NCBI GenBank assembly: GCA_964532285.1
Contig: CAZHHB010000003.1
Span: forward strand, 3,626-67,625
DNA: 64,000 nt
Direction: 5' to 3'
Source: an uncultured Candidatus Saccharibacteria bacterium
GTDB lineage: Bacteria; Patescibacteriota; Minisyncoccia; Phycocordibacterales; PALSA-1337
Under the pieces are notes generated by a model, which searched no databases, was not told the origin of the DNA, and saw only the letters and a list, made by a program, of their open reading frames with translations. This document shows, in pieces, positions 10,207-21,616 of this stretch (its first letter is position 1; every line of letters begins with the position of its first letter). The position numbers and the translations under genes are program-made.

Positions 10207-12546
10207 ATGAAAAAACTGCCTATTAATGACAGTGAAGCAGAGATCGTCTCTGCGATTCAGGGGAACCAAGTGACGATAATACTTGGAGCAACGGGATCAG
10301 GAAAGACGACACAAATTCCAATAATGCTCTATAAAGCAGGGTTTGCTAAAGAAGGCATGATCGGAGTCGCTCAGCCTCGAAAAATAGCCACGACGGCAAT
10401 CGCCGAGTACGTCGCCGAACAGCTTGGAAGCGTGCTCGGGAAAGTCGTCGGCTACAAAGTCAGGTTTGATAATCTGACTGAAAGACAAACAGCAATTAAA
10501 TTTGTTACAAACGGAGTGTTGCTTCGGGAAATTCAGAATGATCCGCAGCTCACAAAATACTCCGTCATTATGATCGACGAAGCTCATGAACGCAGTCTTG
10601 AGATCGACCTTCTCCTAGGACTGATCAAAAATCTCCTCAAGAAAAGAAACGATCTCAAGCTCGTCATCACTTCTGCGACAATCAATGCAGAAAAGTTCAT
10701 GAATTACTTCAAGTCCGATTCTGATGTGCCCGTAGTACTGGTTGGTGGTCGCATGTATCCTGTCGAGGTGAAATATCTCGATTGGAATCCATACGGCCAT
10801 GAAATGGTATCTGCGGCAGTAGAAATGATTGCTTCAATTCACGCTTCAAACGAGCTAGGTGACGTATTGGTGTTTATGACAGGTAGGGATGATATCTCTG
10901 CCGTTGTAAAAAACCTCACTGTCCGCTTGGGTACGAATGCTGTCGTGATGCCTCTCCATGGAGGAATGGAAGCTACCGCCTATAAAGCCGTGTTCCAGCC
11001 CCATAAAGGAAAACGGAAAATCATCGTGGCAACGAATATCGCTGAGACTTCGCTTACGATCGACGGCATAAGGTTCGTCGTCGATAGCGGCCTCATCAAG
11101 CAACAGCACTTCGATTCCCAGACCGGAATGGTTAGCTTGGATATTGTCGAGCATTCTATGGCTGGATGCGAGCAAAGAAAGGGTCGGGCAGGCAGGACGC
11201 AGCCAGGCGTATGCTACCGTCTCTACTCTGAAAAGAGTCTCAAATCACGGCCGTTGTTCACACTGCCGGAAATCCAACGGATGAGCCTATCAAAAGCGGT
11301 GCTCATCATGGAAAGCATGGGCATTAGTGACGTCGAACATTTTGACCTCATTGATCCCCCTGGCTTTCAAGCATTCAGAGAAGCCTATCAGACTCTCATC
11401 ATCATCGGCGCGAACGATTTTCGCACTAAAAAGATAACTGAGCTTGGCAGAAAGATGGCAGAGTTACCGCTCGAACCATGCATCTCCCGAATGCTCATCG
11501 AAGCGGAAAAATACCGCTGTGTGAAAAGCATTGCCGCCTTCGCAGCATTCCAATCGGTACCGCACGTATTCATGCGTCCGCGAGGAAAGGAGGAATCTGC
11601 TGATCATGCGCACCAACAGCTCATGCACCCCAAGTCGGATGCACTTACGCTCATCACCGTTTGGAACAAGTATATTGCAAACGGCCGAAAACAGGACTGG
11701 TGCTACAAGCACTTTCTGAATTCGCACGCTCTTGAGGAGGTGGAACTCATCTACTCCCAGTTGCTTGATATTTTGGAGCAAAACAATGTTTCGCTTACGA
11801 GTACTATGAACGAGGATGTCATCATGAAGTGCGTCGTCTCTGGGCTCGTATTCAACCTCATTGAGCATGATTCGCGATGGGAATATCGTGGCATTTTCCA
11901 GGGGATGGATAAGATCGGCTTACACCCGTCTTCGTCGCTCTACCGCTTGATGCCAAGGTTTGCTGTCGCTACGAGTCTGGTCCGTACGACCAAGCTCTAC
12001 GCTCGGTGTTGTACAGCCGCACCGGTTGAATGGCTCGCGGAGTTCCTTCCGCAGCTCTTCACCTGTAATGAGCCTATCCTGTCCTCATACACCAAAGGAG
12101 AATCGTATGCAGTCGGAGAGCAATCCATCCTGTTCAAAGGGAGGGGAGTCATCCACCGTAGGGTCAAGATTTCCTTGGAATTGGCAAAGCGCCTCAACGA
12201 ATGGAGAGACACACAGATGAAAGCCAAGAGATTGGTACGCCTGGTGTTTCAAAAAAGCGGTGAGCGATACGTTGCCGATTGCAGTGGTGTGGAAGTTGAA
12301 GTGAGCAAGAGAGGAAAAATACTCTCTGTTCGCACAGATGTTCCATACTACTGCGAAGTGGTTCGTCTCGGGCCTGCAGTATTCGCTCATGTCCAAGAAG
12401 AAGCGATAGACCTTGGTGAAAAAGCCAATATTCTGATTCCGGTTCAAAAGGTTGAAAAGCCTGTTTCGACTGCCGACAATCACACTCAGTCACTCGCCCA
12501 GGAATTGGCGAAGGGTTGGGAATTGGTATTGGAAACGCTCAAATAA
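10207..12546 (+). CDS. ATP-dependent DEAH-box RNA helicase, HrpB/HrpA-like
   Basis: GATGSGKTTQIP (motif I), IDEAHERS (DEAH), TSATI (motif III), QRKGRAGR (motif VI); 779 aa. Confidence 0.8.
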   Translation: MKKLPINDSEAEIVSAIQGNQVTIILGATGSGKTTQIPIMLYKAGFAKEGMIGVAQPRKIATTAIAEYVAEQLGSVLGKVVGYKVRFDNLTERQTAIKFVTNGVLLREIQNDPQLTKYSVIMIDEAHERSLEIDLLLGLIKNLLKKRNDLKLVITSATINAEKFMNYFKSDSDVPVVLVGGRMYPVEVKYLDWNPYGHEMVSAAVEMIASIHASNELGDVLVFMTGRDDISAVVKNLTVRLGTNAVVMPLHGGMEATAYKAVFQPHKGKRKIIVATNIAETSLTIDGIRFVVDSGLIKQQHFDSQTGMVSLDIVEHSMAGCEQRKGRAGRTQPGVCYRLYSEKSLKSRPLFTLPEIQRMSLSKAVLIMESMGISDVEHFDLIDPPGFQAFREAYQTLIIIGANDFRTKKITELGRKMAELPLEPCISRMLIEAEKYRCVKSIAAFAAFQSVPHVFMRPRGKEESADHAHQQLMHPKSDALTLITVWNKYIANGRKQDWCYKHFLNSHALEEVELIYSQLLDILEQNNVSLTSTMNEDVIMKCVVSGLVFNLIEHDSRWEYRGIFQGMDKIGLHPSSSLYRLMPRFAVATSLVRTTKLYARCCTAAPVEWLAEFLPQLFTCNEPILSSYTKGESYAVGEQSILFKGRGVIHRRVKISLELAKRLNEWRDTQMKAKRLVRLVFQKSGERYVADCSGVEVEVSKRGKILSVRTDVPYYCEVVRLGPAVFAHVQEEAIDLGEKANILIPVQKVEKPVSTADNHTQSLAQELAKGWELVLETLK

Positions 12547-12594
12547 AAAAACAAACGCGGAAGGAATCAAATCCTTCCGCGTATTTTATTTTTA
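12547..12594. terminator. Bidirectional rho-independent terminator between convergent helicase and rnc
   Basis: A-run, cgcggaagga-atcaaatc-cttccgcg, T-run. Confidence 0.65.
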
Positions 12595-13269
12595 TATCAG
12601 AGTAAGAGCAACTTTTGCCGCCGCTTTCTCCGCCTTGGCCTTAGTCGACCCTTCACCTTGTGCAATAAATGATCCACCGAAGTAGACACCCATCACATAC
12701 TGCTTATCGTGGTCAGGGCCAGATTCCCGAATAACTTGATACGACGGCGTTATTCCAAGTTTGTCCTGAATCTGTTCCTGAAGCAATGATTTCGGATCGG
12801 TCATTTCTTCCCGAGAGTAATCGAGATTGCGCTTGGTAAGAAGTAGTCTACAGATGACTTCCCGAGCCATTTCCATTCCTTGATCAAGTCGGATCGCGCC
12901 GAGAACTGCCTCGAATGCATTTGCGAGAATCACTCTGCGGGATTTGATATCCTTCTGCTCCCCTCGTGAAAGAAACAGAAAGTCGTTGATGCCAAGGAAG
13001 TCACTGACTTCGCTTGCTCTCTCGGAGTTGACTATGTGTGACCGAATCGCTGTCAGTTCGCCTTCCGTTTTTGTAGGAAAGAGATTGAACAGATGCTCGG
13101 TGACGACGATTTGCAAAACAGCATCTCCCAGGAACTCTAGGCGTTCATTGTGGGGGACATCGTTTGCACGATTTTCATTGATATACGACCGATGGGTTAA
13201 GGCTTCCTTTAGAAGCCGTTTGTTTTTGAAGGTACAACCGATTTTCTGCTCAAGAGATGCGTAGTTCAT
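12592..13269 (-). CDS. rnc: Ribonuclease III
   Basis: RNase III signature ERLEFLGDAVL; C-terminal dsRBD-like region. Confidence 0.9.
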   Translation of the reverse strand: MNYASLEQKIGCTFKNKRLLKEALTHRSYINENRANDVPHNERLEFLGDAVLQIVVTEHLFNLFPTKTEGELTAIRSHIVNSERASEVSDFLGINDFLFLSRGEQKDIKSRRVILANAFEAVLGAIRLDQGMEMAREVICRLLLTKRNLDYSREEMTDPKSLLQEQIQDKLGITPSYQVIRESGPDHDKQYVMGVYFGGSFIAQGEGSTKAKAEKAAAKVALTLI

Positions 13270-13380: not shown

Positions 13381-14109
13381 TCAGGCCGGCGAACATGCTG
13401 CGCGTGCCGCCTTGAGCTTCTTCTTGAGTTCACCCCCGTCCTCTTTCAGACAGACCGAGATTCTTCCGATTGCTCGGTAGAGGCCGTCCTGATCGAGATG
13501 AAACGCACTCAATATTTCGGGCAAGGTGATTTTCGGAAAATCATCCCAGACCAGAAACACCACTGCGTCCTTGGCGAGCAGAACTTCGGCGGCTGGATCA
13601 CGGCTTTGCAAAAGATCCGCACCCAAGAAGAAACTGGTGACCGCTTTCTGAACCTTCCCGATGACCTGGGTTGTGTTCATGGTCGTAACGACCGAAGCCG
13701 TCTCGATCGGCTCAGGCGGGTTCGGCTTTCCACCTGCCGAAATGGTCTGTCGTAGGGGACTGCTAGGACTTGTGGTCGGCAAGCCCACCTGTCCTCCTCC
13801 TGGTATGGCCGACAACATGAGTACTTCTGTCTTGATCTCCTCGATCAATGTGGCCAGTGCCGTGTCGGTTTTCAGCAGTTCCTTAACTGTCTTTGAGGCA
13901 GTGTACACCGTCATGGATGTGGTACTCAAGGCCTCGCAGGTGCCTTTGAGCGAGCTGCCGAGGGCGTCTTTCAGGACATGCATGACCACTTGCCGGTGAA
14001 GGCGGTCACCTTCTTTGCCTTTGATTACTTCAGGCGTTGTTTTGTAGTGCACTGCAACCATCTCGATCACTTTTTGAGCGATACGAGGGTCTTGAGTCTT
14101 TCTTTTCAT
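13381..14109 (-). CDS. DnaA domain IV-like (Bac_DnaA_C-type HTH) protein
   Basis: N-terminal 90 aa (IAQKVIEMVAVHYKTTPEVIKGKEGDRLHRQVVMHVLKD...) aligns with the DnaA C-terminal DNA-binding domain pattern; rest low complexity. Confidence 0.45.
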   Translation of the reverse strand: MKRKTQDPRIAQKVIEMVAVHYKTTPEVIKGKEGDRLHRQVVMHVLKDALGSSLKGTCEALSTTSMTVYTASKTVKELLKTDTALATLIEEIKTEVLMLSAIPGGGQVGLPTTSPSSPLRQTISAGGKPNPPEPIETASVVTTMNTTQVIGKVQKAVTSFFLGADLLQSRDPAAEVLLAKDAVVFLVWDDFPKITLPEILSAFHLDQDGLYRAIGRISVCLKEDGGELKKKLKAARAACSPA

Positions 14110-14210
14110 ACGATTCTTCTACTTTCTTTTTGTTAAGGTTTCTGTGTGTTTATTGAAAACTTTCCGTCTCTGAACCCAATACTACATACTTTAAGGATTT
14201 TGTAAAGAGA

Positions 14211-14242
14211 TAATAAAAAAGCCATCCGATTTCGCGGATGGC
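14211..14242 (-). terminator. Rho-independent terminator after sigma gene
   Basis: Perfect 8-bp stem gccatccg/cggatggc followed (minus strand) by TTTTTT. Confidence 0.55.
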
Positions 14243-14263
14243 TGTGATTTCGACGCTTGTGCA

Positions 14264-17200
14264 TCAAAGGTTCTGTAATTCAACCAGAAAGCGGACTTTC
14301 TCGAACTCTTGAGTGTAATCCGTCATTAGTTGAATGTCTGATTGATCCAATGTTGGGGTTAGCCTCTCCATTGTGACCATTAGAATCTGACGAACTCTTT
14401 CCCGTGTAATGTCATAGGTTTGCCCTAGAGCTTCGTAAGTCAGAGTTTCCTTTGTGGGGTCTCCAGCATAGCGAAGCCTCAAGATTTCCTTGTGACGATC
14501 TGGTACATCGAGTGCGTCGAGCTTGGCATGGAGCTGTTGCACTTTTTGCTTGAATGGCTTGACTACCTTATCAACAATGCTTTTCAGCTCCTCAACCTGT
14601 TTAGGGAAGAGTCGCTTTTGACATTTTTTCAGCAGTTCAAGATCTGATCCATATGGCTCCAAGGTGTACTGCGATCGAATCAGTCCAATCTTCTCCTTGA
14701 GCGCAGGGTTTAACTCCGCCTGCTTCTCAATGTCTCCGCAAATGACGGATACGTTGCCTGGGTCGCTGAAACCGAACATCCTCGCCATTTCCTGACGCTG
14801 TAGCCCGATGTCGTTGTGTAGCAGGTGCATGGTCACATCCCGTGCAAACTTGCGATTTTTTTGTTCTGCATTAGGTCTTGTTACCGACTTTGCGAACAGA
14901 CTCGACTTCTCGATGTTGAATGCTTGGCTCGTGAGAGTAAGCACTTGATCGACAATCGGGGAGGCTGCCATGTTTACTGTCTCGACAGCCTCTGCTAGTT
15001 GCTCGGTCTCGACTGGCTTTTCTTGTCGCAGACCGCACAGGGCGATGATCTTTTCGATTTCGTCCCGAAGGGCGGGATTCTGATCTATCAACCTTTTGAT
15101 CGATCTATATCCATGCATGGCTACCGTGTGCTCTTTATACTGGAGTGCCTGAGCGATTCCAGGAAAGGAAGACTTTAGCTCTTCCCTCATTATGTAAGTG
15201 CAGACCCATCTCACCCACACGATATCGCGTGGCCTTGTTTCGCCGAGTACGGTCTCTGGAGTTTTGCCATAGACCTTACTTACTATACCGACGATATCGT
15301 CAGGTGTAATGATCACTTTTTCCACGCATGTTCCTTCGAGGTTGGCCACAGGCGTTTTGATTAGCTCAACCTCTCCAAGGTTTGCGGCTGGTCGCCCAGG
15401 TATAATCAGGACACCGGGGACCATCTCGCCTTCATCCGCTTGATCCTGGAACACAATAGATACTTCATCCAGAATTAATGCTTCAGTCGGAGTAGAAAGG
15501 TCAGCTTCACCACAAACAATGTTTTCAAGATCATGGACGCGTTTTAATGCAGCCACGAGCTTCTCATCGTTCATTGAGATACCGTATTCACCGAGTTTAT
15601 TCCAGATTTGACTATTCATCTGGCGAATCCGTTCCCGAGTGACTCCAAAACTTGAAGTCTCTGCGATGGATTCCAAGGTATAATCCTCGGCGTGTCCTTC
15701 GAGTCCGTAGTACATTTTGAAGGCAGTTTTTGCCTTTTCTGACACTGGCAATGCTTTGATTGCTGCCAACAATGTTCGGATGTTCCGAGATGCTATCTCC
15801 AAATCCTCCTTTGCTTCAAGAGCAGTGACGGCAGAAGGGAAACATTGATCCATGATTTTGTCGCCGAAGGTAGTGGTGTCTAAATATCTTGACGAGGAGC
15901 AATAGGCCAATTCCTCCAGAGACACGACGGGGACTTTGAGTTGGTGAAGAATCTTCTTCACCTTGTCAACGTCCTCTTCTGCCTTGGCCGCGACTTCTTC
16001 AAGCGTCGGTTCACGCTGCAATTGCATTCCCAATTCACACGTTATCTTGAGGATCTTATTCAGAGCCTCTTGAGCGTGGACTGGCATTCGAACAAGATCC
16101 CTGAAGTTCTGGATTGCTCGTTGCATGTGCTGTCGAACCCACCATGTTGCATATGTAGTGAAGTGAAATCCTTTTTCGGGATCAAACCTTTCCACTGCAA
16201 CCATGAGACCGATATTGCCCTCCTGGACAAGATCGTCGTAGTCCAAACCTCGGCCCATATAATGCGCGGCGATTTTCATCGACAAACGCAAGTTATGAAC
16301 CACGATGGTGTTGCGGGCTTCGTAGTCGCCGTGCATGTGCCACCGGCGTGACAATTCCAACAAGTGTTCGTGTTTTAAGAACTTGTGATTCTTGGCTACA
16401 CGATAGTACGGATTAGTGACACCGGATTCTCGATCGAAGATAAACTTCGGTATGAATTCTCCGTCGGGATCAGCATTCTCGCTTTCCTCACCATCGATTT
16501 CGACTTCTCCGCCTTGTTCCATTTCCAGCAGGGCTTCTTTTGAAGGCTCCTCAGAAACGGTTTCGCTAATGCCGGTTGAGTTGAACAATGCCGGTAGCTT
16601 GCCTTTGTTGATCGGAGCTTCATCGGAACGGCGAGAGTAGGAAGTCACTGGACTCCGTGACTCGGGTTTTTTGTAGTGAACTTCCCCGATCACGATTTTG
16701 ATGTCGATGCCACTCAGAAGTTGAGTGATCCATCGCATTGCTGGTCGGAGCTTCTCACTATCCTGCGAAATTTCCGCAGGGATGAGGGCGCCGATTTGTT
16801 GAGGCGAGATGCGACCTTCGTCTTTGGCTGCTAGAAGAATTCCAAGTGCTTCGGGTTTAAGCCCGTGCTCCTGTAGAATTTTGGCATTCAAGAAAGGCGA
16901 CTCATGACCTTCTCCTGCATATTGCGGTCCCTTAGCTACTGCTAAGAGAGGAACAGTCTGTTCCTCGACTTTCGGTTGCGGTTCCGGCTTTTGAGCCGGA
17001 GCTGCGGGCGCGACAGCAGGGGATTGGACAATATGTGTATGAGTGTGGACGATGTTGAATGTAACAATGATGTGGAGATTTTGCAGTATTTTTTTAATTT
17101 CCTGCAACACCTCCGCCATTTTCTGCCGGTCTTTGGCTAGGGCGCCAGAAACCATTTCACTGATTTCTTGAGGGGTGATTGCCCCTCTTTCCTTGGCTCG

Positions 17201-17293
17201 GGTGAGAGTTTCCTTGGCATGGGGCTTTAACCCCCATCGTTCAAGTACAGCCTCATCAAAACCAACGAGTGCGTGGTCGATTCGGTCTATCAT
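14264..17293 (-). CDS. rpoD: Sigma-70 family factor (RpoD-like, 1009 aa) with duplicated region 1.1, two region-4 HTH units and two DnaA-domain-IV-like modules
   Basis: Region 2: HLLELSRRWHMHGDYEARNTIVVHNLRLSMKIAAHY ... DLVQEGNIGLMVAVERFDPEKGFHFTTYATWWVRQ. Region 4.2: LESIAETSSFGVTRERIRQ and again LTYEALGQTYDITRERVRQI. Two ~60-aa N-terminal repeats resemble sigma70 region 1.1. Two internal segments align with DnaA domain IV (...KEHTVAMHGYRSIKRL). Confidence 0.75.
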   Translation of the reverse strand: MIDRIDHALVGFDEAVLERWGLKPHAKETLTRAKERGAITPQEISEMVSGALAKDRQKMAEVLQEIKKILQNLHIIVTFNIVHTHTHIVQSPAVAPAAPAQKPEPQPKVEEQTVPLLAVAKGPQYAGEGHESPFLNAKILQEHGLKPEALGILLAAKDEGRISPQQIGALIPAEISQDSEKLRPAMRWITQLLSGIDIKIVIGEVHYKKPESRSPVTSYSRRSDEAPINKGKLPALFNSTGISETVSEEPSKEALLEMEQGGEVEIDGEESENADPDGEFIPKFIFDRESGVTNPYYRVAKNHKFLKHEHLLELSRRWHMHGDYEARNTIVVHNLRLSMKIAAHYMGRGLDYDDLVQEGNIGLMVAVERFDPEKGFHFTTYATWWVRQHMQRAIQNFRDLVRMPVHAQEALNKILKITCELGMQLQREPTLEEVAAKAEEDVDKVKKILHQLKVPVVSLEELAYCSSSRYLDTTTFGDKIMDQCFPSAVTALEAKEDLEIASRNIRTLLAAIKALPVSEKAKTAFKMYYGLEGHAEDYTLESIAETSSFGVTRERIRQMNSQIWNKLGEYGISMNDEKLVAALKRVHDLENIVCGEADLSTPTEALILDEVSIVFQDQADEGEMVPGVLIIPGRPAANLGEVELIKTPVANLEGTCVEKVIITPDDIVGIVSKVYGKTPETVLGETRPRDIVWVRWVCTYIMREELKSSFPGIAQALQYKEHTVAMHGYRSIKRLIDQNPALRDEIEKIIALCGLRQEKPVETEQLAEAVETVNMAASPIVDQVLTLTSQAFNIEKSSLFAKSVTRPNAEQKNRKFARDVTMHLLHNDIGLQRQEMARMFGFSDPGNVSVICGDIEKQAELNPALKEKIGLIRSQYTLEPYGSDLELLKKCQKRLFPKQVEELKSIVDKVVKPFKQKVQQLHAKLDALDVPDRHKEILRLRYAGDPTKETLTYEALGQTYDITRERVRQILMVTMERLTPTLDQSDIQLMTDYTQEFEKVRFLVELQNL

Positions 17294-17461
17294 TTTGTGC
17301 TCCTGTGGTTAATTGTTAATGTGCGAAAACTAAAAACACATTACATTACATATATATACTTGTCCAGTCACGGGGGAGCTTTACAGATATCTATTTTAAT
17401 GATATGAAGATGGTTAGATACTTTCAGTTTTTTGTAAATAAACCCTCAACCAAAGGACGAT

Positions 17462-19471
17462 ATGTACACACCTTATGACTATCAAGAAGGGTGTCTTGTT
17501 GTCTTAAAGACAACTCGCATCCAAGGAAAAACCGTCGCACTCATCGTGATGGCGAGCGGTCTTGGAAAGACCGTGACCGTTGCCTTCGATGCTAAAGAGT
17601 GGCTCAAGGAAAACAAGGGCAGGGTTTTATATCTCTGTCATCAGAACGATATTCTCGGCCAAGCTCAGCAGACGTTCGAGTCAATCCTCGGTAGCGGTTA
17701 CACTTACGGATTCTATACGGGTAGGGAAAAAACAGCCCACGGGGCAGATTTTCTGTTCGCCTCCTTCCAGACCATGGCGAAGAATACTCAAAGGGTGTTT
17801 TCGTCAGACGAATTCGCATACATCATTGTTGACGAGAGTCACCATTCGCAGGCGCCGTCTTATCTGAAGATCGTGGAATACTTCAAGCCGAAATTTCTGC
17901 TTGGAGCGACTGCCACGCCAGATCGTGCCGATAGTCTCAATATCCGCTCGGTTTTCGGCGAGGAAGTTTACAATCTTCCTCTCGAGAAAGCTCTTGCACA
18001 GGGACTGCTCACTAGAGTGAACTATCGCCTCGTCACGGACGAAATATCTCTCGACGAGGTCAACAGGACTAACGTCGAAGATTGGTCTCTCGAGGATATC
18101 GACCACAATGTCTTCATTCCCAAACGGGACGAAGAAATTTCCGCCTCAATCGATCGGCATGCGGCTGAACTTGAAGATCAGAGGATCATTGTCTTTGCGA
18201 GCACTATAGCTCGGGCCGAGCAGTTGGCCCAGCGCATTTCGGGAAGTATAACCATTCACTCCGAAGTTCCAACCAAGGAGAGATTGGTCAGGCTCGAAAT
18301 GTTTCGCCAGGGAATGGTTCGTGCGGTGATCACTGTTGATTGCTTTAACGAAGGTATCGACATACCAGAGGCTAATGTAATTGTGTTTCTGCGTTCGACG
18401 ACCTCGATGAGGATATTTTATCAACAGCTTGGTCGGGGCCTACGCCTCTCTCCAGGGAAAGATAAAGTTATCGTCCTCGATTTCGTAGGAAATGCAGAGC
18501 GACTCGTCATGCTCAAGGAACTTGCTGATGCAATTGGTATTCACTATTCGGAGGAAATGGCTGCTCGTGTAAACAAGCGGCAGAATCCCTTCGATATCAA
18601 ATTCGATGAAAAGGCTCAGGGCGTTCTGGATCTCGTCAAACGCATTCGCGTGAAACGAGTCGCTGATGTGCCTGATCTGCTCTTAGAGTATTCACCCCGC
18701 AACCCATTGTCTGCATCGAGTATCTCAGCCAAAAGCTGGAAAGATGTCTGGTGGAAATGCGGAAGATGCGAACATGAATGGCAAGCCAGCCCTGCCGCTA
18801 AAGCATATGGGAGGCAGTGTCCCAAATGTGAAGGACAAGTAACTGCGGAAAATAATCTTGCAGTTCTCCGTCCAAACCTCGCTAGGCAATACACAAGCCG
18901 AAATCTTCTCCCTGCAGATCAAATAATAGGGAAGACGAAAGAGATAGCTTGGTGGAAATGCCCTAAGTGCTCCTATGAATATGGGGCCAGACCTTACAGC
19001 CGCATATACCGAAGCGATGGCTGTCCTGCATGTGCGGCAGAAATGCCTGCATATAAAGACAACTTGGCGTTTCATTCACCCAAACTAGCACTTGAATACT
19101 CTTATACCAACATGCTCTCACCGGAACATGTCGGCTTCAGAACTACATTCGGGCGTTGGTGGATTTGCTCGGACTGTGGCAACAGCTATCAAGCGAGCGC
19201 GCTAGCTAGGGATAATGGAAAAGGCTGTCCAAGATGCACCGCTAAGGTCCCCACGAAAGTGGTCAACCTTATAACGACCCACCCTTTCCTTGCGGAAGAA
19301 TATTCCTCCAGAAACAGGAAATCGGCAGACACGATTCTTGCTGATACCGACGAACAGTTGTGGTGGGTATGCTCTTCTTGCGGCCGTTATTGGCAAGCAA
19401 GTGGAAGGGAACGACTCAACGGAAAGATTTGTCCCCATTGCCCCAAGCTGATACCGGTTTCGGTTGAGTAA
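17462..19471 (+). CDS. SF2 helicase (XPB/ResIII-like) with four C-terminal CxxC-CxxC zinc-ribbon repeats
   Basis: MASGLGKTVT (motif I), VDESHH (II), GATATPDR (III), QQLGRGLR (VI); C-terminal repeats WWKCGRCEHEW...CPKC x4. Confidence 0.75.
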   Translation: MYTPYDYQEGCLVVLKTTRIQGKTVALIVMASGLGKTVTVAFDAKEWLKENKGRVLYLCHQNDILGQAQQTFESILGSGYTYGFYTGREKTAHGADFLFASFQTMAKNTQRVFSSDEFAYIIVDESHHSQAPSYLKIVEYFKPKFLLGATATPDRADSLNIRSVFGEEVYNLPLEKALAQGLLTRVNYRLVTDEISLDEVNRTNVEDWSLEDIDHNVFIPKRDEEISASIDRHAAELEDQRIIVFASTIARAEQLAQRISGSITIHSEVPTKERLVRLEMFRQGMVRAVITVDCFNEGIDIPEANVIVFLRSTTSMRIFYQQLGRGLRLSPGKDKVIVLDFVGNAERLVMLKELADAIGIHYSEEMAARVNKRQNPFDIKFDEKAQGVLDLVKRIRVKRVADVPDLLLEYSPRNPLSASSISAKSWKDVWWKCGRCEHEWQASPAAKAYGRQCPKCEGQVTAENNLAVLRPNLARQYTSRNLLPADQIIGKTKEIAWWKCPKCSYEYGARPYSRIYRSDGCPACAAEMPAYKDNLAFHSPKLALEYSYTNMLSPEHVGFRTTFGRWWICSDCGNSYQASALARDNGKGCPRCTAKVPTKVVNLITTHPFLAEEYSSRNRKSADTILADTDEQLWWVCSSCGRYWQASGRERLNGKICPHCPKLIPVSVE

Positions 19472-19621: not shown

Positions 19622-21616
19622 ATGTTTGAATCCAGATTCTATCAAGACGATTGCCTACGGATCCTTCAAAAGGTTCGACAAAAAGGCATACTTCGGGCGC
19701 TCGCTATAATGGCAAGTGGTCTCGGAAAGACGGTTACGATGGCCTTTGATGCCCTTAGTTTTCGAAAGCAATTTCCGAAGGCTCGGGTGCTCTACATTTG
19801 TCATCAAAATCAAATATCCAATCAGGCTCGTGGCACCTTTGAAGCGATCAACGGCAACAGTTGTACATATGGTTATTACAACGGCATCGAGAAGATCGCA
19901 CACTCAGTAGATTTCCTGTTCGCTTCATTTCAGACAATGAGAACGCACATGAAAAACTTTCGTCCAGACGAGTTCGACTATGTGGTTGTTGATGAAAGTC
20001 ATCACACATACGGCGACACTTTTTTGGATGTAGTGACCTACTGGAAGCCCAAGTTCCTGTTAGGGATGACGGCGACACCTGACCGCACTGACTGTCAAGA
20101 TATACGCAAAGTTTTTGGTCAGGAGGTATTCTACCTTCCGCTCGAAGAAGCACTTGCTCAAAGCCTGCTCACCCCGGTCGATTATCGCTTGATGACGGAT
20201 GAAATTCGACTCAAGAAGACGATCGAGTCGGCTGAACGGCGCTTGAGTTTGAAGATGCTTAATCGCACGATTTTTGTCCCAAGAAGGGATGAAGAAATTG
20301 TACGAATTATCCATAAACACTCACAAGAACTTCAAGAACCGAAGATTATCATCTTCTGTCAGTCGATTCAGTACGCTGAAGAATTGGCAAAGATCATGAC
20401 TGGGTCAATGACGATTCATTCGCGCGTATCGCTCAAGGAGAGGATTGTTCGAACAGAATTGTTCCGCCAAGGGCTCATCACTACGTTACTGACTGTGGAT
20501 GTTTTTAACGAAGGTATCGACATACCGGAAGCGAATGTTATCGTGTTCCTTAGGACCACAACATCTCACGTAATATTTTTCCAGCAACTCGGGCGCGGTC
20601 TGCGTCTGAGTGCTGGAAAGGATCGTGTGGTTGTTCTCGACTTTGTGGGTAGTTGCGAGCGAGTCAAAACCATCTACACTCTGTGGGACAATGTGAAAGC
20701 TCGCAGACAAAAAGTCATCAGTGCCACACCTGCTGCGAACCGAAACATGGGGAATCATACTTCTCGGAATATTGATCCCTTTTACCTCAATATGGGCGTC
20801 GTTGACTTCGAGGAGAAAATCCTCAAGGTGGTCGATATCGTTCGCAGGATCAATGACGGGTTTACTCGGGAGGAATGCATCTTGATGCTTCAGGCTTTTG
20901 CCGCACGGCTAAAGAGATCGCCCACACAAAAAGAAACCCATAAAAACAGACAGATGCCGAGTCAGTCTCTATATTGTAGGTACTTTGGTAGCCACACTGA
21001 GGCATTGAAGGCAGCGGGGCTTGCAGTCAATCAGATTCGAGATGTAACCGATGAAGAACTTCTTGAACAACTCCGAGGTGTCCAACAGAGGCTCGGTCAC
21101 TCACCTTCTCAGGGAGAACTCGCACAGGCTTCGAAAGACGGCTTGTGTTCTTGTGAACCTATGTTCCGTGAGCGCTTTGGATCGTTAAACGAGGCGCTTA
21201 AGGAAATTGGCTCAACACCTGCTCGGCAAGTTGGTCTCACAAAGATGGAGCTTGTCGCTCAGCTTCAGAAGCTGAAGGAGAAGGTCAAACGAGTTCCAAC
21301 GGTTGAGGATCTGATTGAAGCGTCAGCACAAAAGAAGATGGCAAGTTATTCTGTTTTCCGTAAGCACTTCAAGACCTGGAACAATGCACTTAGAGAAGCA
21401 GGCCTTACCGATAAAAAGGTCGAGGTACCTCACTATACCGAGGCAGAGTTGGTGGCTGATTTGAAAAAAGCCAACAGTATTCTGGGGCATGCACCAACGA
21501 CTGGGGATATGAATCGTCTTCGTAAGCAAGGGAAATTGAAAGTGGGAAGTCTCGGGGCTTTCTACTGGCGATTCAAGACTTGGAATAATACCCTCAAAGT
21601 CGCCGGATTGAAATAA
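19622..21616 (+). CDS. SF2 helicase (XPB/ResIII-like), paralog of the upstream gene, with four C-terminal homing-endonuclease-associated-type helical repeats
   Basis: Same motif set (MASGLGKTVT, VDESHH, GMTATPDR, QQLGRGLR); C-terminal ~45-aa repeats ending ...FKTWNNALREAGL x4. Confidence 0.7.
   Translation: MFESRFYQDDCLRILQKVRQKGILRALAIMASGLGKTVTMAFDALSFRKQFPKARVLYICHQNQISNQARGTFEAINGNSCTYGYYNGIEKIAHSVDFLFASFQTMRTHMKNFRPDEFDYVVVDESHHTYGDTFLDVVTYWKPKFLLGMTATPDRTDCQDIRKVFGQEVFYLPLEEALAQSLLTPVDYRLMTDEIRLKKTIESAERRLSLKMLNRTIFVPRRDEEIVRIIHKHSQELQEPKIIIFCQSIQYAEELAKIMTGSMTIHSRVSLKERIVRTELFRQGLITTLLTVDVFNEGIDIPEANVIVFLRTTTSHVIFFQQLGRGLRLSAGKDRVVVLDFVGSCERVKTIYTLWDNVKARRQKVISATPAANRNMGNHTSRNIDPFYLNMGVVDFEEKILKVVDIVRRINDGFTREECILMLQAFAARLKRSPTQKETHKNRQMPSQSLYCRYFGSHTEALKAAGLAVNQIRDVTDEELLEQLRGVQQRLGHSPSQGELAQASKDGLCSCEPMFRERFGSLNEALKEIGSTPARQVGLTKMELVAQLQKLKEKVKRVPTVEDLIEASAQKKMASYSVFRKHFKTWNNALREAGLTDKKVEVPHYTEAELVADLKKANSILGHAPTTGDMNRLRKQGKLKVGSLGAFYWRFKTWNNTLKVAGLK

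Follow-up and report, generated by a model that had tools for sequence, protein, structure and literature searches.

The window analysed here, a stretch of DNA of 64,000 nucleotides, contains a minus-strand gene for a 1009-aa sigma-70 family protein, identical to P0001 in NCBI/ENA and encoded by the only ORF with a sigma core in these 64 kb. The gene belongs to a block of six, in the order two ResIII helicases, sigma, a small protein with domains resembling DnaA domain IV (DnaA-IV), RNase III and an HrpA-like helicase. The features are the following (aa, residues of the encoded protein):

10207..12546, plus strand: HrpA/DEAH-type RNA helicase, conserved neighbour, of the type fused to sigma in P0185
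12592..13269, minus strand: RNase III gene, conserved neighbour (Ribonuclease_3 and dsrm)
13381..14109, minus strand: 242-aa partner protein, two DnaA-IV-like domains with a Pro/Ser-rich linker between them (profiles, Foldseek, hhalign)
13384..13683, minus strand: partner C-domain, aa 143-242
13810..14109, minus strand: partner N-domain, aa 1-100
14220..14243, minus strand: intrinsic-terminator-like hairpin and T-run, 3' of the sigma gene
14264..17293, minus strand: 1009-aa sigma-70 family protein with accessory domains, stop codon included (ORF list, profile searches)
14339..14518, minus strand: second region 4, aa 926-985, with ITRERVRQI, homologous to the first (profile match, comparison)
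14660..14977, minus strand: DnaA-IV module 2, aa 773-878, basic loop bearing an insertion, DnaA-box contact residues lost
15059..15313, minus strand: DnaA-IV module 1, aa 661-745 (Pfam, hhalign, contact residues)
15584..16423, minus strand: sigma core, aa 291-570, regions 1.2-like, 2, 3 and 4 (profile matches, contact motifs)
16664..16900, minus strand: N-terminal repeat 2, aa 132-210 (repeat E 4e-13)
17030..17260, minus strand: N-terminal repeat 1, aa 12-88, with an HTHTH run at its end, possibly region-1.1-like (repeat E 4e-13)
17338..17366, minus strand: putative promoter of the sigma gene, TGGACA-17-TAATGT, low confidence (conserved in orthologous intergenic regions)
17462..19471, plus strand: ResIII/SF2 helicase 1, conserved neighbour of the sigma gene and divergent from it, DUF4379 zinc-ribbon tail
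19622..21616, plus strand: ResIII/SF2 helicase 2 with an HNH_repeat tail, conserved neighbour, of the type fused to sigma in P0033

The initial annotation had read a sigma-70 core in the 1009-aa ORF, a terminator behind it and rnc after the 242-aa gene. The last two are indeed present, as the hairpin at 14243..14220 and as the Ribonuclease_3 and dsrm matches at 12592..13269(-). The core is confirmed by Pfam and PDB matches. Sigma70_r2 (PF04542) matches aa 331-394 with 70-73 bits (cut-off 24), Sigma70_r3 (PF04539) aa 409-456 with 30-32 bits, and a first Sigma70_r4 (PF04545) approximately aa 518-567 with 27.6 bits (gathering cut-off 24.1). The motifs for contact with the -10, extended -10 and -35 elements are all kept in canonical form (YATWWVRQ, RMPVHAQE, VTRERIRQ), and the core is 41% identical to canonical RpoD across regions 2-4, with YATWW.RQ, R.PVH..E and VTRERIRQ retained. 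The top PDB matches are the primary SigA/RpoD/RpoS (E 1e-72 to 1e-60). They reach into region 1.2, and upstream of region 2 the profile alignments extend as far as SigA residues 56-118. The Pfam model of region 1.2 (PF00140) has no match in the 1009-aa protein itself and matches its orthologues P0028, P0154, P0159, P0165, P0189 and P0199. The protein scores below every NCBIfam RpoD/RpoS equivalog cut-off (205 vs 354 bits for TIGR02393, 196 vs 555 for NF004208), and among the NCBIfam sigma models the superfamily TIGR02937 alone passes its cut-off. No second sigma core was found in the window or in the relatives' flanks of up to 10 kb.

Both ends of the protein carry duplicated domains. The second Sigma70_r4 match, at aa 931-978 with 44.1 bits (cut-off 24.1), is homologous to the first region 4 (E 5e-8); both copies have TRER(I/V)RQ, which reads TRERVRQI in the second. 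The second region-4.2-like HTH described initially is real, but it does not sit at the extreme C terminus, as some 30 residues follow it. At the other end, the two tandem repeats are homologous to each other (29% identity over 72 aa, ungapped, E 4e-13) and as conserved within the sigma family as region 2, with 72-75% mean identity (75% for repeat 1). Their proposed likeness to region 1.1 is weak: PF03979 gives E 0.58, and hhalign of the repeats against the r1.1 profile gives an in-register match with E 5.5e-4 and a probability of 30%. They are near-neutral, unlike the acidic region 1.1, and no PDB sequence match was found for them.

The two segments said to align with the C-terminal HTH of DnaA are also real by Pfam and hhalign, but they lie at aa 661-745 and 773-878 instead of 640-720 and 770-850. 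The Bac_DnaA_C profile (PF08299) is significant, with 65.6 bits over the whole 1009-aa protein against a cut-off of 31.5. Module 1 alone scores 51.9 bits (aa 664-732). Module 2 alone scores 19.1 bits (approximately aa 774-841), below the cut-off, and hhalign relates it to E. coli DnaA domain IV (87% probability, E 4e-6) and to module 1 (98% probability, E 1.6e-14). The AAA+ domain III (Bac_DnaA, PF00308) was found in neither the sigma nor the 242-aa protein; it is present in P0149-P0151 and P0283, true DnaAs among the search matches. Conservation is 48-53% in the DnaA-IV-like modules vs 41-44% in the linkers. DnaA domain IV also occurs in arrays of up to 8 copies and fused to an IS200-type transposase and to a HATPase domain.

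The retention of contact residues in module 1 raises a question: could the sigma factor read DnaA boxes? In E. coli DnaA numbering (1J1V), module 1 has retained the counterparts of R399, R407, P423, H434, T435 and H439, with D433 replaced by E, and it matches true DnaAs with approximately 75-86 bits, as they match each other. Among the four DnaA-IV-like domains of the two genes, it alone keeps the DnaA-box contacts. This is compatible with a coupling of transcription to replication, in which the modules would bring RNA polymerase to the DnaA boxes of oriC or of promoters regulated by DnaA, activating the origin by transcription or competing with DnaA. Also in favor of such a coupling, one perfect TTATCCACA sits 7 nt upstream of the -35 element of a lexA-like promoter (TTGACT-18-TATAAT), an anecdotal case. 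Still, we regard it as quite improbable. Across the sigma family H434 and T/S435 are mostly kept, but H439 is replaced by Y in approximately half of the members, several lack H434/T435, and some, such as P0026, lack module 1 altogether. The expected enrichment of DnaA-box-like sites did not materialize: TTATCCACA with at most one mismatch occurs 24 times in the window vs 18.2 +/- 4.0 expected, of the three perfect boxes, two form direct repeats on either side of a restriction-modification cassette, and no box lies in the conserved sigma/helicase intergenic region of the orthologues. Furthermore, the window contains neither a dnaA gene nor oriC.

In the window, TTGAC-N16-18-TAnnnT promoters lie in front of genes, and TTGACA is found upstream of genes 13 times where 3.1 are expected (P 2e-5). 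No recurrent motif upstream of the -35 element was found in approximately 140 kb of sequence.

The stand-alone gene next to the sigma gene does have the DnaA-IV-like N terminus first attributed to it: the family profile of this domain matches PDB DnaA with E 5e-5, Foldseek gives a TM of 0.73-0.75, and hhalign relates it to module 1 (97.7%). Beyond this N-terminal likeness, the C-domain is DnaA-IV-like too, being related via module 2 (hhalign 93%, E 2.8e-7). Both domains are degenerate, without the residues that contact the DnaA box. Members of the 242-aa family share contigs with the sigma and are still its neighbors at <50% sigma identity. Because three of the four DnaA-IV-like domains have lost the contact residues, and because the modules, with a pI of 8.1-8.9, are just mildly basic, DNA binding by these domains is an assumption made from homology. 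One could consider the extra modules regulatory or protein binding, held in an intramolecular or partner-bound state (e.g., docked on the real region 4, or in complex with the 242-aa mimic or the helicases) and forming a tethered switch akin to anti-sigma or anti-anti-sigma factors. The three domains stay conserved despite their losses, the 242-aa protein repeats the succession of module 1 and module 2, the duplicated region 4 could serve as a decoy, and the PhyR sigma-like domain is among the weak structural neighbors. We nonetheless find this explanation unlikely. A pure decoy would have no need for the DNA-reading residues kept in module 1, nor for TRERVRQ in the second region 4. Moreover, with 1 to 4 modules depending on the orthologue, additive DNA contacts are a better fit than a fixed switch.

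The gene neighborhood adds a conserved association with helicases and sigma-helicase fusions, neither of which was part of the initial annotation. The order of the six genes recurs at 59%, <50% and 34% sigma identity. The flanks differ and consist of housekeeping genes, among them RuvA, Mur ligase, Fpg and PurD, and in three lineages the GC content of the block is 6-10 points above them. The neighboring helicases are RadD/XPB/type-IV-restriction-like and DEAH/HrpA-like, and both types are met fused to sigma in other lineages. P0033 consists of sigma, a divergent DnaA_C-like module and a ResIII helicase; P0185 consists of an HrpA-like helicase, RNA_pol_A_CTD, sigma and two Bac_DnaA_C, and is followed by rnc.

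Such a block could be a mobile or defense island, MZA-like or of a helicase/restriction type, whose alternative sigma would not be the housekeeping one. The top NCBIfam and PADLOC match of the protein is MzaA, from the MZA anti-phage system (NF041931/PDLC02203), the neighboring helicases are similar to the helicase portion of type IV restriction enzymes (7clg), and the GC content of the block exceeds that of its flanks. However, the match to MzaA, itself a large sigma-70 family protein with non-sigma extensions, is limited to the generic sigma core (224 vs 800 bits), and PADLOC revealed no other Mza or PADLOC system component, MzaB-E included, in the six neighboring genes. The block includes rnc and is surrounded by housekeeping genes, and the conservation of its order down to 34% sigma identity points to vertical inheritance. 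No integrase or tRNA was found nearby, 2.9 million viral contigs contained no close homologue, and the protein has region 1.2 and the canonical residues for promoter contact. A defense-island sigma is, in our view, very unlikely.

The same Pfam architecture was found in 31 clusters at 90% identity, and the fusion of Sigma70 and Bac_DnaA_C in at least 17 representatives at 50% identity, which belong to Taylorbacteria/Paceibacteria of the candidate phyla radiation (CPR). Sigma70_r1_2 is present in several of these relatives, whose source names include "RNA polymerase primary sigma factor" and "rpoD [Candidatus Paceibacter sp.]". The initial annotation knew of no described example and had envisaged that the insertion might be a universal, already described feature of RpoD. 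It is lineage-wide in Taylorbacteria/Paceibacteria, but a search of the searchable full-text literature, Meheust 2019 included, likewise found no description of a fusion between sigma and DnaA-IV. The architecture itself (a sigma-70 core, two DnaA-IV HTH modules, a second region 4 and a DnaA-IV-like neighbor) is correct and statistically solid.

What could be the function of this protein? Our preferred explanation, to which we give an even chance, is that it is the principal (housekeeping, group-1-like) sigma factor of its lineage, with permanent accessory domains and a functional link to the neighboring helicases. That it is the principal and only sigma is something we infer. The duplicated N-terminal domain, the one to four DnaA-IV HTH modules and the second region 4 would have been acquired in the lineage. 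The core would direct RNA polymerase to ordinary TTGACA/TATAAT-type promoters, while the HTH modules tethered to it, together with the second region 4, may contact DNA upstream of the -35 element, acting as a built-in activator or in the manner of an alpha-CTD/UP-element contact. Module 1 would be the sole candidate for reading DnaA-box-like sequences. The 242-aa protein appears to mirror the two-module cassette, with an N-domain like module 1 and a C-domain like module 2, and probably modulates the cassette of the sigma or competes with it. A physical collaboration of the holoenzyme with the adjacent SF2 helicases is also probable. A bolder proposal, which we advance as a long shot, is a sigma-centered initiation machine in Paceibacteria-type CPR, in which SF2 helicases (the RadD/XPB-like ResIII enzymes and the DEAH/HrpA-type enzyme) and DnaA-type HTH domains would be physically tied to the principal sigma. 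It could use extra upstream promoter elements and ATP-assisted promoter opening or RNA hand-over, as a bacterial analogue of eukaryotic initiation, which the helicase of TFIIH/XPB assists.

These possibilities may have important consequences. Sigma factors are known to read promoters by regions 2-4 only, with separate activators or the alpha-CTD supplying added specificity. We know of no described primary sigma with further sequence-specific DNA-binding domains. If a primary-type sigma does carry origin-recognition-type HTH domains and a second -35 reader throughout a lineage, then a large uncultivated group of bacteria would have a different promoter architecture, to which the recurrent helicase linkage and fusion also point, and promoter prediction and models of gene regulation for CPR genomes would need revising. 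The sequences further suggest that DnaA domain IV may serve as a general-purpose DNA-binding module outside replication. The defined domains offer a testable handle in organisms whose transcription is almost uncharted.

Finally, the protein can be compared with known systems. It resembles RpoD/SigA (group 1) in having regions 1.2-like, 2, 3 and 4 in canonical order, in its contact motifs and in its best matches, SigA/RpoD/RpoS. It differs in its length, with a duplicated domain within approximately 290 additional N-terminal residues and with two DnaA-IV HTH modules and a second region 4 within approximately 440 additional C-terminal ones, and in falling below all RpoD equivalog cut-offs. With DnaA it shares the domain IV HTH fold (Bac_DnaA_C). 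It is not an initiator because it lacks the AAA+ domain III and domains I-II; unlike DnaA when it regulates transcription through DnaA boxes, it has domain IV covalently on sigma and not in trans, and only one of the four copies encoded by the two genes still has the DnaA-box contacts. The proposed role is analogous to that of the alpha-CTD at UP elements and of class I activators, where a flexibly tethered domain binds DNA upstream of the -35 element, and the relative P0185 has an RNA_pol_A_CTD-like domain in the same polypeptide. Here, however, the domain would act from sigma and not alpha, with a different fold. ECF41/ECF42 and PhyR-type proteins are sigma-family proteins whose activity is modulated by extra C-terminal or sigma-like domains. 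The ECF sigmas with C-terminal extensions belong to group 4, lack regions 3 and 1.2 and are not known to carry DnaA-IV HTH domains in these extensions, whereas the 1009-aa protein has regions 1.2-like and 3 and DnaA-IV HTH modules. MzaA is the best-scoring named model, and the match ends at the sigma core. RapA/HepA and HelD bind the core enzyme and are not known to be fused to sigma or syntenic with it. They share with the present system the tie between SF2 helicases and an RNA polymerase subunit, made here by genome context and fusion, with helicases that are instead RadD/XPB/type-IV-restriction-like and DEAH/HrpA-like.

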